Of a DNA stretch of 64,000 nucleotides, positions 4,539 through 35,297 are shown one piece after another; within the stretch, counting starts at the first letter, position 1, and the number at the start of each line of letters is the position of its first letter. The position numbers were made by a program, and so were the translations under genes. The stretch spans positions 1-64,000 of the forward strand of contig JAVZNF010000003.1 in NCBI GenBank assembly GCA_038882935.1. The letters are read 5' to 3'. This DNA is from Archaeoglobaceae archaeon. Its GTDB lineage: Archaea > Halobacteriota > Archaeoglobi > Archaeoglobales > Archaeoglobaceae. Below the pieces are notes generated by a model, which ran no database searches, was not told where the DNA came from, and saw nothing but the letters and a program-made list of their open reading frames with translations.

Positions 4539-5125
4539 GAGTAGCGGTCGTCGGTGTCCAAGGCGACGTTGAAGAGCATGTTTTAGCAACGAAAATGGCG
4601 ATGAAAAATCTTGGAATAGATGGCGAGGTTGTTGCGGTGAGGAAAAGTGGTATAGTTTCAAAAAGCGACGCAGTCATAATTCCTGGCGGGGAGAGCACGA
4701 CGATAAGCAAGTTAATCTTCGCAGATTCTATCTCAAAGGAGATTGTAGAACTCGCAGAAATCGGAAAACCTGTGATGGGGACTTGCGCTGGTTTGATCGT
4801 ACTCTCAAAGTTTGGAGACGAACAAGTGGCGAAAACGAGAACAAAACTTCTCAAACTCCTAGATGTTAAAGTCAAGAGAAACGCCTTTGGTAGGCAAAGA
4901 GAGAGCTTTCAAACAAAGCTTGAGATGAAAAAAGTTGGAGAAGTTGATGCGATCTTTATAAGGGCCCCGATTATCGAAGAGGTTGGCAAAGACGTTGAGA
5001 TCCTCGCAGAGTTCGAGGGAAAGATAGTTGCGGTTCAACAGGGAAAGATCCTCGGCTTAGCTTTCCATCCTGAGCTTTCGACAACAAAGGTGCACGAGTT
5101 CTTTTTAAGTCTTGCTGAGCCTTAG
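4535..5125 (+). CDS. pdxT: PLP synthase glutaminase subunit
   Basis: 196 aa beginning [15 protein letters not shown], with a GTCAG nucleophile elbow. ATGA overlap with the pdxS stop. Confidence 0.9.
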
Positions 5126-26047: not shown

Positions 26048-26346
26048 GTATGGAGGTCGAAAAGAGAATTAAAAACTATCTGCAGAAGGATAAAAGCGGA
26101 TTACGGAAAGAGCTACTTTTAATTCTGCTCGACGGGAAAAAGCACACGAGCGAAGAAGTTTGTGAGATTCTAAGGAGTAAGGGTTTTGCTGTCACAAGAA
26201 AAAGGGTTTCCGCGATGCTTGGTGTCGTGAGCTCAAAGATCGGAATCGTAAAAACCGAGCTTGGAGAGAGGAAAAAGTATTATATAAAGCCAGAATATGT
26301 CGAGCTTGTTGAAAAAGCTATCAAAGCCAGTTTACAAAATCTATGA
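26038..26346 (+). CDS. small winged-helix protein, hypothetical
   Basis: About 100 aa. The real start is probably MEVEKRI at 26050. EEVCEILRSKGFAVTRKRVSAMLG is HTH-like. Confidence 0.5.
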   Translation: MGLSMEVEKRIKNYLQKDKSGLRKELLLILLDGKKHTSEEVCEILRSKGFAVTRKRVSAMLGVVSSKIGIVKTELGERKKYYIKPEYVELVEKAIKASLQNL

Positions 26347-27082
26347 AAAGAGGCTTGAGAGATTCGTGCTAAAAAACGAGATTCCGAGACACATAGCCAT
26401 AATCATGGATGGAAACAGAAGGTTTGCAAAGAAACTTGGGCTGGAGGAATCGCAAGGACACGAATTTGGCTCAAAAAAAGCGGAAGAGGTCTTAGAATGG
26501 TGTTGGCAATTGGGGATCAAGATGCTAACACTCTACGCCTTCTCAACCGAGAACTTCAAGAGAAGCGAGGAAGAGAAAAAGAACATCTTCAGAATCTTCG
26601 AAAGAGAGCTTAAAAGACTCTTAACAGACAAGACGACCTACGAAAGAGAAGTAAGAGTCAGAGTGGTCGGAAAAAGAGAGCTTCTCCCAGAAAAGCTTTT
26701 GAGGCTCGTTGAAGAAGTCGAAAAAGCTACTGAACCTCATGAAAAATGCTTCCTCAACATAGCAATTGCGTATGGGGGAAGGCAAGAGTTAATAGATGCG
26801 ACTAAGAAAATCGTTGAGAAGGTGATGAGGGGCGAACTAATGCCATCGCAGATCGACGAAAGAGTTGTTGAGGAAAATCTCTACAACGAGCATGAGCTAT
26901 ATGCAAAGGTAGACATAGTGATAAGGAGCGGTGGAGAGCAAAGATTGTCAAACTTCCTTCCCTGGCAGACCACGAACAGCGTGGCCTATTTCTGCGATGT
27001 CTTCTGGCCCGAGTTTAGGAAGATAGATCTGTTGAGAGCGATAAGAGAGTGGCAGAGGAGGAGGATATGTCAAAGAAACTGA
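26297..27082 (+). CDS. uppS: undecaprenyl/dehydrodolichyl diphosphate synthase (cis-prenyltransferase)
   Basis: IPRHIAIIMDGNRRFAKK and a C-terminal RSGGEQRLSNFLPWQ motif. The start is uncertain (ATG 26297 or a downstream GTG near 26372). Confidence 0.88.
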   Translation: MSSLLKKLSKPVYKIYEKRLERFVLKNEIPRHIAIIMDGNRRFAKKLGLEESQGHEFGSKKAEEVLEWCWQLGIKMLTLYAFSTENFKRSEEEKKNIFRIFERELKRLLTDKTTYEREVRVRVVGKRELLPEKLLRLVEEVEKATEPHEKCFLNIAIAYGGRQELIDATKKIVEKVMRGELMPSQIDERVVEENLYNEHELYAKVDIVIRSGGEQRLSNFLPWQTTNSVAYFCDVFWPEFRKIDLLRAIREWQRRRICQRN

Positions 27083-28281
27083 TGTATGAGTTTAAGAGAA
27101 AACTCGAAGAGCTCGATAGCTATCGCGGAAAGGGAACAGAGCTCATAACTCTCTACATACCTCCCGACAAGAACTTAGCAGATGTTGCAAACCAGCTTAG
27201 GGAAGAGCTAAGCCAAGCTTCAAACATAAAATCGAAGCAAACACGAACGAACGTGATCGCAGGACTCGAGGCGATTTTGAACCGATTGAAGCTATACAGA
27301 AAGCCACCTGAACACGGTATGGTTATCTTGAGCGGTTTTGTCACGATCGATGGAAAAGAGAAGCACATAACCGAGATAATCGAGCCTCCTGAGCCAGTGC
27401 CACTATACAAGTATCACTGCGACTCAAAGTTCTACCTTGAGCCATTGAAGGATATGCTGAAGGAGAAAAAGGTCTACGGTTTGATCGTCATCGATCGAAG
27501 AGAAGCAACCATAGGTTTGCTGAGGGGGCGACGAATCGAGGTTCTTGACTACGACACGTCAATGGTTCCCGGAAAGCACAGGCAAGGCGGACAGAGTAGC
27601 GTTAGGTTCGAAAGGCTCAGAGAGCTTGCAATCCACGAGTTCTACAAGAAAGTCGGAGAAATGGCGACCAATGCTTTCTTGCCTCACAAGGACAAACTCG
27701 TCGGGATCATCATCGGCGGTCCATCGCCGACAAAAGACGAGTTTTATCAAGGCGAATATATGCACCACGAACTGCAGAGAAAGATCCTCGGCTTGTTTGA
27801 CGTAGGCTACACGAATGAGAGCGGACTTTACGAGCTCGTAGACAAAGCAAAGGATTTGCTGTCTGAAGTCGACTTGGTTAGAGAGAAGGCGCTGATGAAT
27901 CGCTTCCTTTACGAGATCTCACGAGATGGTCTTGCTGTATACGGAGAAGAGGAGATAAGAAAGTATCTGGAGATCGGTGCAGTCGACACTTTGCTGATTT
28001 CTGAAGATCTGAGATACGAGAGAGTCCGCTACCGCTGTCCGAGTTGCGGAGAGGAGAGAGTTGTGACGCTAAGAGACAAAGCGGTTTCGAAGCAGGTATG
28101 CGAAAAGGATGGTGTTGAGATGGAAGAGATCGAGAGGGTTGACGTCGTCCTTGAGCTATCCGAGGTTGCTGAGAGAATGGGCACAAAGGTCGAGTTCCTA
28201 TCCACTGAAACAGAAGAAGGAGAAGTTCTCCTGAAAGCCTTTGGCGGAATTGCAGGGATTCTGAGATTCAAGCCTAAGTAA
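27049..28281 (+). CDS. prf1: peptide chain release factor aRF1
   Basis: 410 aa with NIKS (SNIKSKQTR) and GGQ (HRQGGQSSVRFERL) motifs. Confidence 0.93.
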   Translation: MAEEEDMSKKLMYEFKRKLEELDSYRGKGTELITLYIPPDKNLADVANQLREELSQASNIKSKQTRTNVIAGLEAILNRLKLYRKPPEHGMVILSGFVTIDGKEKHITEIIEPPEPVPLYKYHCDSKFYLEPLKDMLKEKKVYGLIVIDRREATIGLLRGRRIEVLDYDTSMVPGKHRQGGQSSVRFERLRELAIHEFYKKVGEMATNAFLPHKDKLVGIIIGGPSPTKDEFYQGEYMHHELQRKILGLFDVGYTNESGLYELVDKAKDLLSEVDLVREKALMNRFLYEISRDGLAVYGEEEIRKYLEIGAVDTLLISEDLRYERVRYRCPSCGEERVVTLRDKAVSKQVCEKDGVEMEEIERVDVVLELSEVAERMGTKVEFLSTETEEGEVLLKAFGGIAGILRFKPK

Positions 28282-29600: not shown

Positions 29601-30062
29601 ATGCAGATCGGGGTTGTTGGCTCTGGAAGTTGCGATGAAGAGCTCTATGCCATCGCTTTTAGGGTTGGACAGCTCATCGCGGAAAAAGGTCATGTGCTCG
29701 TAAACGGTGGTCTGGGTGGTGTGATGGAGGCGAGTGCAATGGGTGCAAAGAGCAGGAACGGAATCACAGTTGGCATTCTGCCGAGAAAGGCGAAGGATGC
29801 GAATCCATACATCGACATAAAGATCGCTACCGACATGGGGCATGCTAGGAACGTCGTAATCGTTCATTCTTCGGATGCGATAATCTCAATTGGAGGCGAA
29901 TACGGAACGATCTCCGAGATTGCGATTGCCTTAAAAGAAGGAAAACCCGTTGCATCGATAAAGCCAAAGGTGGTAATAGAGGGGATGCGGATTTTCCAAA
30001 ACCCCGAAGAAGCGGTTGAATTTGTGATCGAGGCGGTAAAAAATCAAATTAGTTCGAAGTGA
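29601..30062 (+). CDS. LOG-family / TIGR00725-type Rossmann-fold nucleotide-binding protein
   Basis: 153 aa with VVGSGS...GHVLVNGGLGGVMEA and the PGGYGT-like SIGGEYGTISE. Confidence 0.7.
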   Translation: MQIGVVGSGSCDEELYAIAFRVGQLIAEKGHVLVNGGLGGVMEASAMGAKSRNGITVGILPRKAKDANPYIDIKIATDMGHARNVVIVHSSDAIISIGGEYGTISEIAIALKEGKPVASIKPKVVIEGMRIFQNPEEAVEFVIEAVKNQISSK

Positions 30063-30355
30063 ACTATTGTTACAAACTCTGACTCGTCGATCTCGCCGTA
30101 AATTTTTTTCAAGGCCCTTATCAGCTCATCTTTTCCCGAAAACCCATCTACAATCGCATCTTCGTCGCTTAGCTCCGAGACGCGCTTAACCACGACTTTT
30201 TTAACTTTAGCCATTGCGAATGGCTTGCTGTCAACGGTAAGCTCCACAATTTTTCCCACTGGGTAGCTTCGGATGCCTCTTCTTATCGTTGTTTTCTTTG
30301 CTCTGCTCAGTATCGCTGGCACGAATTCGGTATCGAAATTTATGCGCTCCATCAC
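30044..30355 (-). CDS. ASCH (PUA-like) domain protein
   Basis: 103 aa. FVPAILSRAKKTTIRR is ASCH-like. The start forms a TGATG overlap with the encapsulin stop. Confidence 0.6.
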   Translation of the reverse strand: MMERINFDTEFVPAILSRAKKTTIRRGIRSYPVGKIVELTVDSKPFAMAKVKKVVVKRVSELSDEDAIVDGFSGKDELIRALKKIYGEIDESEFVTIVHFELI

Positions 30356-31362
30356 TCGAGAACTACAACTGCGTTTGGATTCTTCAACCTTAGATCTATC
30401 GCCTCCATGGCAATGAAGGCAATCTTATCTCCCTCCGGACCCAGCTCTCTGATTTCGAGATCTTGCCCAACCACGATGTCCGCACAACTCGGCGTGTTCG
30501 CAAAAACCACGACTTTCTCCTCGATCGCTGGTGTTACGATTATCCCACCGGTGAACACTTCTTTCAGAATTTCAACGACCATTTTTCCCCCTTTTTCGTG
30601 AACTTTCAGCAGTTTCGAGAATCTCTCTGGGCTCAGAATTACTGCATATGGTCCTGCAGACACTTTTGCCACTTCTCTCATCGCTTTCAACAGCTCTTCA
30701 ATGCACTCATCGCTTTTTTCCCAACTACCAAGCTTCATCTTCTTCCCAGCCATGAAACCTTCGATTATTTGTCTCTCTTCTGCCCTAACAAGCATCTCTC
30801 CCGCTCTAACTGCGATCGAAGGATCGAAACTACCATCGCTTAGCTCTCTAAGCCCTACAAGGAACCTCTGCGTTATCAAAGGAATCGCCTTGAACTCTTG
30901 GCGAACAACCTTCACTTCACCATCTCCCTCGATCACATCAACCCTGTAGGATTGCGCAGACACCTTTGTCTTTGGTATTAGATTCATCAATTTTCTGCAT
31001 CTCGTAACCCCTTCCATGAAAGAGCTACTTAGGACTGCGAGATAGTTTTGTTCACCTCCATCGAGCGCAGTTTTTATGCCTGTCTTCTCCTCCACTTCTT
31101 TAAAACCGCCTTTCAACTCGCTCACTTGCTCAGCATCGAGGTTGAGCAGAAGAGCTGTGAACTCACCAACGTGCGCTTTTTCCTCCCTTGCAACATCAAG
31201 AAATATCTTCTTGCAGTTCTCATCTGGGCTAAACCTCGCCATCTGCTCGTATAAGCTGATTGCATCGAGCTCAGCCGAGATTGCAAGGCGCAAAGCCTCC
31301 ATAAGCTCTTCTCTACTGTATGGCTTGTCCCTAACAACCAAAGTTGGATTAATCGATAGCAT
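30352..31362 (-). CDS. family-1 encapsulin shell protein with a fused N-terminal ferritin-like (EncFtn/Flp) domain
   Basis: 336 aa. The N-terminal roughly 100 aa carry LAISAELDAISLYEQMA...VAREEKAHVGEF (EExxH diiron-like). The C-terminal part aligns with T. maritima encapsulin: GPYAVILSPERF with GPYTLVINTDRW, TGGIIVTPAIEE with GGKIITTPRIED, IVVGQDLEI with LILGQDLSI, and the end LRLKNPNAVVVLE with QVVNPEALILLKF. Confidence 0.8.
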   Translation of the reverse strand: MLSINPTLVVRDKPYSREELMEALRLAISAELDAISLYEQMARFSPDENCKKIFLDVAREEKAHVGEFTALLLNLDAEQVSELKGGFKEVEEKTGIKTALDGGEQNYLAVLSSSFMEGVTRCRKLMNLIPKTKVSAQSYRVDVIEGDGEVKVVRQEFKAIPLITQRFLVGLRELSDGSFDPSIAVRAGEMLVRAEERQIIEGFMAGKKMKLGSWEKSDECIEELLKAMREVAKVSAGPYAVILSPERFSKLLKVHEKGGKMVVEILKEVFTGGIIVTPAIEEKVVVFANTPSCADIVVGQDLEIRELGPEGDKIAFIAMEAIDLRLKNPNAVVVLE

Positions 31363-31411
31363 AACAATCGCTTAATCGCTTCTTTATAAAACTTTCCAGG
31401 GATTGCGCAAA

Positions 31412-33693: not shown

Positions 33694-33795
33694 TTTCCTA
33701 AAAGTTATTTAAAATTTTCACGGGAAATTTTGATTTATGAAAAATTAAGAAGACTTATTAAAAAGATTTTTAAATCCACCATTTGCTCAGGATTT

Positions 33796-34965
33796 ATGGA
33801 TGGGGGAGATATTGCTTGGCTTATAACCGCAACTGCGATGGTTATGTTGATGACACCAGCGCTCGGATTGTTCTACGGCGGAATGGTTAGGAGCAAGAAC
33901 GTGATCTCAACGATCACACTTTGCTACTTAGCCTATGCGCTCGTCAGCGTCCAATGGGTGATCATTGGCTACACTCTTGCTTTTGGAGGCGATCAAGCTG
34001 GTTTGATCGGCGGATTTGAGTATTTGGGGCTTCAGAGTTTGAATTTAGTAGATCTTGGTTTTGTGGCATTCCAAATGGTTTTTGCTGGGCTTACAATAGC
34101 GATAGTAGTCTCTGCAATGGTCGAGAGAATTAAGCTGTCCTCCTTTCTGATCTTTGCCCTACTTTGGACTACGCTGGTTTATGATCCAATTGCTCACTGG
34201 GTCTGGGGCGGGGGATGGCTTGCAAAGCTCGGCGCTCTTGATTTTGCAGGTGGCACTGTGGTGCACATAAGCTCAGGATTCTCCGCTTTAGCCTTGGCAC
34301 TTGTAATTGGAAGGAGAAGCAATTTAAAAGGAGTAATTACAGAACCTCACAATGTTCCAATGACTCTGCTCGGCGGTGCTTTGCTCTGGTATGGCTGGTT
34401 CGGCTTCAACGCTGGAAGTGCTCTGCAAGCAAATGAGATAGCCCTTAATGCATTCTTGGTTACAAACACATCTGCAGCTTCAGGAGCATTGGCTTGGATG
34501 TTTGTCTCATGGCTAAAGGGCAGACCTGGTAGCCTTGGAATGATCAGCGGAGCGATTGCGGGGCTTGTTGCGATAACTCCTGCTGCTGGCTACGTAGATG
34601 TGCTGTCTTCAATTGCAATAGGTAGCATCGCTGGAATTGGTTGTTACTTTGCCATGTTGCTTAGAACAAAGCTCGGAATTGATGAAAGCCTTGATGCATG
34701 GGCTATTCATGGTATTGGCGGACTATGGGGGTCGATAGCTACTGGAATATTTGCAAGGATCAACTCGGAAGGTCTGATACTCGGAAACTATTCCCAACTC
34801 TACGCCCAGATAATTGGAGCATTCTCAGGAGCTATCTACGCTTTCGTGGTTACCTTTATACTTGCAAAGCTAATCTCCGCTCTAATAGGGCTAAGAGTTG
34901 AAGAGGCTGAGGAATACGTTGGTCTTAACATTGCCCAACATGGTGAGATAGCTTATTCGAGGTGA
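33796..34965 (+). CDS. amt: ammonium transporter
   Basis: [35 protein letters not shown] is the canonical Amt N-terminus. The start is moved to the internal Met at 33796. Confidence 0.9.
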
Positions 34966-34970
34966 GTGAG

Positions 34971-35297
34971 ATGAAGATGATCTTGGCAATAATACGCCCG
35001 GAAAAGTTCGAGGAGGTAAAGAACTCGCTGGAGAGAGAAGGTATCTTTGCTTTAGCAACATTTGAGGTAAGAGGGCGTGGAGAGCAGAGGGGAATAAAGC
35101 TCCAGTTCCGAGGCAGAGAAATACAAGTAGACATGCTCGAAAAGCTCGCAGTTATGGTGGTCGTTGATGATGAGATAGCTGAAAAGGCTACAGAGCTCAT
35201 AAAGGAGAGTGCAAGAACTGGAAAGCCCGGAGATGGAAAGATCTTCGTTATTCCAGTTGAGAAGGCGATCAGAATTAGGACTGGAGAAATAAGTTAA
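34971..35297 (+). CDS. glnK: nitrogen regulatory protein P-II
   Basis: MKMILAIIRPEKFEEVKNSLEREGI...T-loop RGRGEQRG. It lies immediately downstream of amt. Confidence 0.92.
   Translation: MKMILAIIRPEKFEEVKNSLEREGIFALATFEVRGRGEQRGIKLQFRGREIQVDMLEKLAVMVVVDDEIAEKATELIKESARTGKPGDGKIFVIPVEKAIRIRTGEIS

Follow-up and report, generated by a model that had tools for sequence, protein, structure and literature searches.

Background

The closest described counterpart of the locus reported here is PfV of Pyrococcus furiosus (PF1192, 2E0Z; EncFtn domain 5N5E), in which an EncFtn-type ferritin-like (Flp) domain is joined by a short linker to an HK97 shell and which was crystallised as a virus-like particle (2E0Z). 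Residues 1–99 of PfV form a ferroxidase-active decamer (bioRxiv 10.1101/431494). Two-component systems of encapsulin and EncFtn (R. rubrum, H. ochraceum, T. maritima, and M. xanthus EncA/B/C) have a homologous shell and a ferritin-like cargo and the same presumed role, iron oxidation and storage, but their cargo is a separate protein with a C-terminal targeting peptide. A gene of the PfV type, with the cargo domain fused to the N-terminus of the shell, was found in a stretch of 64,000 nucleotides from an Archaeoglobaceae archaeon (assembly GCA_038882935.1, contig JAVZNF010000003.1, positions 1 to 64,000; hereafter the window), and its stop codon overlaps the start of a gene for a small ASCH-domain protein. 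This pair is best explained, with a probability of roughly 0.75 for the whole, as a PfV-type iron cage followed by a relocated ASCH gene of the YqfB type, the ASCH protein not being cargo and the other neighbouring genes being incidental.

For the ASCH protein, the closest described relatives are E. coli YqfB (9KYF/1TE7) and the GKTR-type archaeal ASCH tRNA deacetylases acting on N4-acetylcytidine (ac4C), which share its size of about 102 amino acids (aa) and its fold, and whose GxKxxTxR-type octapeptide aligns with it at the Lys, Thr, and Arg positions. ASCH proteins of the GKTR and GKER octapeptide types, three of them from A. fulgidus, are reported to strip ac4C from tRNA in vitro and also to hydrolyse the free ac4C nucleoside; some members of the ASCH/PUA-like domains bind RNA, whereas YqfB does not, and the same preprint does not discuss gene neighbourhoods (bioRxiv 10.64898/2026.02.27.708502). 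Orthologues of the window's ASCH protein lie in operons with TmcA or Flp genes, which has not been described for YqfB. The TmcA-linked ones of A. profundus, Ferroglobus placidus, and Geoglobus are 65–70% identical to it and show the same tight stop/start coupling; there the upstream gene encodes a TmcA of about 765 aa, whereas in the window it encodes the Flp-encapsulin, and the TmcA gene has another location with no ASCH beside it. TmcA is the NAT10-type RNA cytidine N4-acetyltransferase, the writer of ac4C.

The features of the locus, all on the minus strand, are as follows.

30352..31362, minus strand: Flp-encapsulin fusion gene of the PfV type (336 aa plus stop), from the open reading frame (ORF), Pfam, phmmer against 2E0Z, and an identical NCBI protein
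31060..31362, minus strand: N-terminal EncFtn-type ferritin-like (Flp) domain, residues 1–101, from EncB_fam, phmmer against 5N5E, conserved residues, and model helices
31051..31065, minus strand: flexible linker, residues 100–104, with a predicted local distance difference test score (pLDDT) below 50 in the model and the most length-variable part of the family alignment
30355..31050, minus strand: HK97-fold encapsulin shell domain, residues 105–336, from the AlphaFold2 model and Foldseek match to 2E0Z_A
30350..30354, minus strand: TGATG stop/start overlap of encapsulin and ASCH, from the sequence
30044..30352, minus strand: ASCH-domain gene, 102 aa, YqfB-type, predicted N4-acetylcytidine amidohydrolase/deacetylase, from Pfam, model, Foldseek, and profile match
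31383..31397, minus strand: archaeal TFB recognition element (BRE)/TATA-like element GGAAAG-TTTTATAAA, read from the sequence, a putative promoter

The Fusion Encapsulin

The 336-aa protein, encoded by one single ORF (30352–31362, minus strand), is a PfV-type family 1 encapsulin with an HK97 shell fused to an Flp domain. By phmmer, residues 1–336 aligned with residues 1–345 of P. furiosus PfV (2E0Z; E=2.7e-124) at 57% identity from end to end, and the N-terminus with P. furiosus EncFtn (5N5E; E=1.7e-43). The C-terminal half also aligned to the shells of T. maritima, M. xanthus, Q. thermotolerans, and other family 1 members, with E values of 1e-9 to 1e-17 for the shells of two-component systems. 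Pfam assigned Linocin_M18 (PF04454) to residues 120–321 with 85 bits at a cut-off of 24.3, and Rubrerythrin to residues 22–93 with 30.9 bits. The NCBIfam model encap_f1 reached 80.3 bits, under its equivalog cut-off of 100, with only profile positions 53–261 matched; this shortfall is most likely due to the first 52 profile positions being unmatched and not to failed homology. EncB_fam matched residues 13–94 with 70 bits, under the cut-off of 90.

An AlphaFold2 model built from 26 sequences had a mean pLDDT of 85, and its best Foldseek match was 2E0Z_A (E=7e-34, target-normalised template modelling (TM) score 0.94, root mean square deviation (rmsd) 1.4 Å), followed by encapsulin shells only (more than 40 chains, family 1). 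A preliminary description of this DNA had proposed a PfV-type Flp-encapsulin fusion, to be checked by profile search and structure prediction; the Linocin_M18 and EncFtn matches and the full-length alignment to 2E0Z bear this out, and an HK97 fold, whose absence had been named as an argument against the proposal, was obtained.

The Flp domain, of the two-helix EncFtn type, has helices at residues 17–43, 48–75, and 77–94 in the model. E31, Y38, E60, E61, and H64 are unchanged across an alignment of 26 fusion homologues, and the ferroxidase-centre residues among them (E31, E61, and H64, with Y38) match the di-iron site of the Pyrococcus, Haliangium, and Rhodospirillum EncFtn decamers (bioRxiv 10.1101/431494). 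Both motifs named in the preliminary description were located: EExxH as E60-E61-K62-A63-H64, and the C-terminal NPxAxxxL within KNPNAVVVLE. The window protein has nine residues fewer than PfV (336 versus 345 aa), the difference lying chiefly in the linker and two loops; the ferroxidase residues are the same. It occurs in an Archaeoglobaceae host and not in Thermococcales, and it is coupled to an ASCH gene that is missing at the Thermococcaceae locus examined.

About 60 full-length fusion homologues were found, with identities of 76–99% in Archaeoglobaceae, 54–60% in Thermococcales, and 30–36% in Korarchaeota and Thermoproteota; a genome scan added Bacillota fusions at about 26%. A 100% identical NCBI protein is named 'family 1 encapsulin nanocompartment shell protein [Archaeoglobaceae archaeon]', and the Archaeoglobaceae names of identical proteins from metagenome-assembled genomes agree with the Archaeoglobus-like background assumed before. 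Because of this identical named protein and the wide spread of homologues, the architecture and its range are already known, the window protein is already annotated, and novelty is low. The encapsulin thus adds little beyond extending the PfV-type self-loading iron cage, itself well characterised, to hot-spring Archaeoglobaceae. More useful are the by-products of the analysis, namely the TmcA-ASCH pair, the clade in which ASCH has been re-coupled to a ferritin-like gene, and the shell-less derivatives that occur in nature, which provide testable handles on ac4C turnover and on the making and breaking of cargo-shell fusions.

The fusion encapsulins of Thermococcaceae, Thermoproteota, and Bacillota had no ASCH gene beside them by tblastn and by Pfam on the downstream genes, which encode MscS, ZIP, desulfoferrodoxin, a rubrerythrin-like protein, and others. 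A desulfoferrodoxin gene lies beside a Bacillota fusion (L046 6252–6644), and genes for a rubrerythrin-like protein and a ZIP metal transporter lie beside Thermoproteota fusions (L026 6049–6519 and L010 6157–6924). Such neighbours would fit an iron/oxidative-stress neighbourhood in those other lineages.

The ASCH Protein

On the minus strand, the junction reads CTCGAG-TGA-TGG, and the encapsulin TGA (30354–30352) and the ASCH ATG (30352–30350) have one base in common, so the TGATG overlap is present as previously described. The ASCH ORF (30044–30355, minus strand) yields 103 aa when read from a GTG start and 102 aa from the ATG, the latter being the choice of the gene callers on identical public contigs. 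The earlier assignment to the ASCH family stands (Pfam ASCH 52.6 bits, cut-off 21.2), and its length of 103 aa applies to the GTG start only.

The AlphaFold2 model of the ASCH protein had a pLDDT of 95 (above 90 throughout) and is compact, with both termini within beta-strands. Its best Foldseek match, ahead of other ASCH proteins, was E. coli YqfB (9KYF; TM score 0.85, rmsd 1.6 Å over 101 residues). A profile of the ASCH family matched YqfB with E=0.0026 and placed K19, T22, R24, and D69 opposite K21, T24, R26, and E74. These four residues are invariant across ASCH genes linked to TmcA, to Flp-shell fusions, and to Flp-only genes, which argues for catalysis kept under purifying selection. At the Gly position of the octapeptide, the window protein has Arg, whereas most homologues have Gly. 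The isoelectric point (pI) is 7.95, below the value of about 9 of nucleic-acid-binding archaeal ASCH proteins.

The window ASCH protein most likely hydrolyses ac4C, either in tRNA or other RNA as an eraser or in free form for nucleoside salvage. This is the best-supported function because of the fold and profile match to YqfB, the published activity of archaeal ASCH proteins, and the operon link to TmcA.

Linkage of ASCH to TmcA

ASCH orthologues with 48–70% identity lie immediately 3' of TmcA in A. profundus, Ferroglobus placidus, Geoglobus, and a fourth lineage (L090). The ASCH gene overlaps the end of TmcA in Ferroglobus, Geoglobus, and L090, and directly follows it in A. profundus. The pairs were located at the following positions.

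L085 1682–4318: TmcA-ASCH pair
L087 1714–4303: TmcA-ASCH pair
L088 1714–4315: TmcA-ASCH pair
L090 1711–4321: TmcA-ASCH pair
About 40 of L092–L155: TmcA-ASCH pairs on metagenomic contigs

In most of these pairs the two genes overlap.

When 75 ASCH loci, redundant ones included, were sorted by their upstream gene, TmcA was found directly upstream in 40 and with an insert in a further seven. Twelve followed an Flp-shell fusion and five an Flp-only gene, eight had another gene upstream or stood alone, and three were too short to call. The junction between TmcA and ASCH is insertion-prone.

The coupling of TmcA and ASCH gives genomic support for an ac4C writer paired with an eraser (or salvage enzyme) in hyperthermophiles. 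The pair is not mentioned in the preprint on ASCH erasers (bioRxiv 10.64898/2026.02.27.708502), and no report of an encapsulin-ASCH or TmcA-ASCH linkage was found in the literature, where 'asch' in titles and abstracts appears to be unrelated.

Judged by eye, the sequences separating TmcA from ASCH include a small HicB/HicA-like ORF pair (L130 547–1061 and L141 1116–1628) and a 295-aa gene with a 183-aa macro-domain-like ORF (L120 2504–3939); another is about 1.7 kb long and mostly non-coding (L133 2265–4000). At L104, L122, L140, and L142, a lone ASCH gene stands divergent from a gene that resembles histidyl-tRNA synthetase, likewise by eye.

Probable Relocation of ASCH

Only in one Archaeoglobaceae clade does ASCH stand behind an Flp-shell gene or a shell-less Flp gene. 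TmcA was not found within the 64-kb window, and blocks of NCBI accession numbers tied the encapsulin (MEM0088841, MEM0266026) and ASCH (MEM0088840, MEM0266027) to the TmcA cluster P0263 (MEM0088295, MEM0265728). By the same approach, the 97% relative P0004 was tied to TmcA P0259 in each of four assemblies. Three assemblies with an identical encapsulin locus (GCA_038732925.1, GCA_038728225.1, and GCA_038888755.1) carry TmcA on another contig, preceded by a thermosome gene and followed by Metallophos, MoaE, and other genes, without ASCH; L167 4001–7499 shows this order of the window's own species. Since TmcA lies on another contig and has no adjoining ASCH, the two genes are uncoupled in the window's lineage.

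Other hot-spring Archaeoglobaceae show the order TmcA-NifU-AF0631-VIT1, again without ASCH (L156–L165, e.g., L156 3001–6534). VIT1 in this order is a gene of an iron-transporter family, and it is preceded by the AF0631-like gene. The TmcA clusters P0248 and P0234 were considered as the TmcA of the window species and rejected, as they belong to other Archaeoglobaceae species with this order.

A neighbour-joining (NJ) tree of ASCH proteins placed the Flp-linked genes as one clade nested among the TmcA-linked ones, with a bootstrap of 30/100, and recovered the Flp-shell subgroup with 72/100. The TmcA-ASCH arrangement is most likely ancestral in Archaeoglobi, for which its broad taxonomic spread is a stronger argument than the tree.

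A Conserved Unit and Its Probable Shell-Less Derivatives

The BRE/TATA-like element ends 20 nucleotides (nt) upstream of the encapsulin ATG, inside the 49-nt gap that follows the M20 gene. The fusion gene occurs in three unrelated contexts by gene-cluster comparison, and a like element was seen at equal distance in all of them.

Context A: GNAT/M20 ... SLOG (window, L005)
Context B: Trx-HEAT ... pyruvate-ferredoxin oxidoreductase (L006, L166)
Context C: phenylacetate-CoA ligase-like ORF of about 431 aa and ACT-like ORF of 137 aa, both identified by eye, ... 432-aa protein (L007, L094, L098)

ASCH is the sole conserved companion of the fusion gene. The TGATG overlap was likewise present at L006, L007, L094, and L098, and a one-base overlap at every Archaeoglobaceae fusion locus seen; the element was recognisable in most Flp-only loci as well. 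Because element and overlap recur across contexts, the conserved or mobile unit comprises a putative promoter, the Flp(-shell) gene, and ASCH. The interval from the TATA-like element to the encapsulin ATG contains the direct repeat GCGATT-AA-GCGATT (window 31366–31379, minus strand). It is confined to the window's lineage, L005 being diverged there, and could be an operator or due to chance. A scan for sigma-70 promoters and terminators gave counts at or below shuffle expectation, the bacterial model being uninformative for an archaeon.

Five loci carry Flp-only genes of 100–101 aa in front of ASCH.

L017 5001–5306: Flp-only gene
L096 2866–3171: Flp-only gene
L097 3693–3998: Flp-only gene
L102 3699–4001: Flp-only gene
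L013 2697–2999: Flp-only gene

Their products are 77–78% identical to residues 1–101 of the window protein, with ferroxidase residues intact, and no shell domain or shell gene was found within these five loci. The genes stop exactly at the linker of the fusion, so that natural Flp-only proteins correspond to the laboratory construct of PfV residues 1–99. They overlap with ASCH by gaATGAcg in one group and by TAATG in the other.

The Flp-only genes apparently arose when the fusion encapsulin lost its shell domain. In an NJ tree of Flp domains (subset of sequences, custom bootstrap), the ASCH-linked clade was supported by 165/200, its fusion subclade by 165/200, and its Flp-only subclade by 134/200. 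Loss is more parsimonious than gain because the nearest outgroups of the ASCH-linked clade are all full PfV-type fusions. The two junction types together with the ASCH tree suggest more than one shell loss, while in the Flp tree the Flp-only genes cluster as one group. At L017, the Flp-only/ASCH pair directly follows a stretch (...GGTTCAAACCCCCGCGGACCCA, about 4920–4975) resembling a tRNA gene's 3' end, and tRNA genes are common integration points.

Proposed Function

By homology to PfV, the HK97 domain (residues about 105–336) would self-assemble into an icosahedral shell, probably of T=3 symmetry with 180 subunits and a diameter of about 30 nm. The EncFtn-type domains would face inward and pair into di-iron ferroxidase centres (E31, E61, and H64, with Y38), and Fe(II) entering through shell pores would undergo oxidation and be stored in mineral form inside the lumen. 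We infer both assembly and iron mineralisation from the 57% identity to PfV. The two genes would be transcribed as a bicistronic mRNA, leaderless or with a short leader, from the promoter just upstream of the encapsulin ATG, and ASCH would be translated by termination-reinitiation through the stop/start coupling. The 102-aa ASCH protein would then remove the acetyl group from ac4C, free or in tRNA/RNA, having presumably moved in one Archaeoglobaceae clade from the TmcA operon to its place behind the Flp(-shell) gene. Observed directly were the sequence and fold assignments, the conserved residues, the spread of gene orders, and the separate site of TmcA in these genomes.

Several points weigh against this explanation. 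Identity between the window ASCH and YqfB is just 21%, and the acid position is occupied by Asp69 where YqfB has Glu74. The NCBIfam model for ac4C amidohydrolase (PRK04980) gave 19.1 bits at a cut-off of 93, so the protein falls outside the equivalog family of the enterobacterial enzyme and the claim is restricted to its working like YqfB. The nesting of Flp-linked ASCH genes inside the TmcA-linked ones is weak (the bootstrap of 30/100 given above), and the window's genome may contain a second, more distant ASCH paralogue. Finally, the pair has been kept in at least four contexts and after shell loss, which could reflect a real tie between Flp and ASCH.

Such a tie would make ASCH the true partner of the ferritin-like domain, either in a co-regulated module of iron/oxidative-stress response and ac4C removal or by direct contact of Flp and ASCH, and is considered unlikely. 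The stop/start overlap of Flp (with or without shell) and ASCH at every locus seen, the recurrence of the pair, together with a promoter-like element of its own, in four or more unrelated flanking contexts, its survival of shell loss in seemingly two separate events with different junctions, and the intact catalytic residues of both proteins all speak for it. However, no biochemical rationale connects an ac4C hydrolase with a ferroxidase, the linkage is limited to one family-level clade while other Flp-fusion lineages lack ASCH, and the dominant partner of the orthologue is TmcA. An ASCH gene without its own start signals depends on the upstream gene for expression, and this dependence alone can preserve the pair, which is the preferred reading. 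An adaptive pairing, in which an ac4C hydrolase was rewired from the operon of the writer into an iron/oxidative-stress module, is likewise unlikely. If true, RNA or nucleoside deacetylation would be co-induced with, or physically dependent on, a ferroxidase, with or without a shell, and, as a corollary, fusion encapsulins could revert naturally to free, functional, shell-less EncFtn decamers.

It is very unlikely that ASCH lacks hydrolase activity and instead binds RNA as an adaptor or reader for TmcA, left behind by a rearrangement and now drifting. RNA binding by some ASCH/PUA-like members, as reported in the preprint, and the lost TmcA neighbour in the window's lineage would agree with this, but K19, T22, R24, and D69 are invariant in all three linkage classes, the pI lies below that of nucleic-acid-binding ASCH proteins, and YqfB itself does not bind RNA.

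Genes for the cargo of family 1 encapsulins typically lie next to the shell gene, and the preliminary description had named the ASCH protein, and also the M20, LOG, and VKOR gene products, as possible co-cargo or accessory proteins. Although this adjacency and the overlap of the ASCH start with the shell-gene stop, a sign of translational coupling, favour such a role, it is extremely improbable for ASCH or for the M20, SLOG, or VKOR-like proteins, as the 102-aa ASCH protein is compact and confidently modelled throughout, with no flexible tail and, as each terminus is part of a beta-strand, no room for a targeting peptide, the last 30 residues of ASCH and of every neighbour contain no [LIVT]x[LIV]G[ST]L-type motif, ASCH remains coupled to shell-less Flp genes and its orthologues to TmcA, fusion encapsulins of other lineages have no adjoining ASCH, and contexts B and C lack M20, GNAT, SLOG, and VKOR-like genes. 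A scan for targeting peptides in all window ORFs of at least 80 aa returned a single implausible match, an 81-aa ORF at 929–1174.

Neighbouring Genes and Minor Observations

The presence of M20, SLOG, and VKOR-like genes beside the encapsulin is incidental. The M20 deacylase is of the ArgE/LysK type and scored over the cut-off of the NCBIfam 'acetylornithine deacetylase' model PRK08652.1-2 (364 versus 348). The gene previously called LOG belongs to SLOG cluster 4/TIGR00725 and not to LOG proper, with 51.7 bits at a cut-off of 300, and the name VKOR rested on a weak match below threshold (30.6 versus 120 bits).

With M20, SLOG, VKOR-like, GNAT, EamA, RHH, and eRF1 as tblastn queries against 84 and later about 170 loci, M20 and GNAT adjoined the encapsulin only in L005 (encapsulin 89% identical) and L092 (ASCH 100% identical). 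SLOG, VKOR-like, and EamA genes occurred only at the near-identical loci L092 and L001–L004, the L005 contig stopping within ASCH. None of M20, GNAT, SLOG, VKOR-like, and EamA was found by tblastn at L006 (82%) or L007 (80%). An accessory role of these neighbours was rejected on this ground, as they accompany the encapsulin only in near-identical relatives, with at least 86% ASCH identity.

An origin of the locus from a prophage or virus-like particle was also rejected; no phage genes lie nearby, the flanks are housekeeping, and the protein is an Flp fusion. The remainder of the region consists of housekeeping genes, with no sign of a mobile element or prophage near the encapsulin. ASCH on the minus strand and the SLOG cluster 4 gene on the plus strand converge, sharing 19 nt at their 3' ends (window 30044–30062). 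An ammonium transporter with a P-II protein is encoded at window 33730–35297, and UPP synthase and aRF1 are encoded by overlapping ORFs at 26297–28281. Further along in the identical public contig (L001), a glutamate-synthase cluster was observed.

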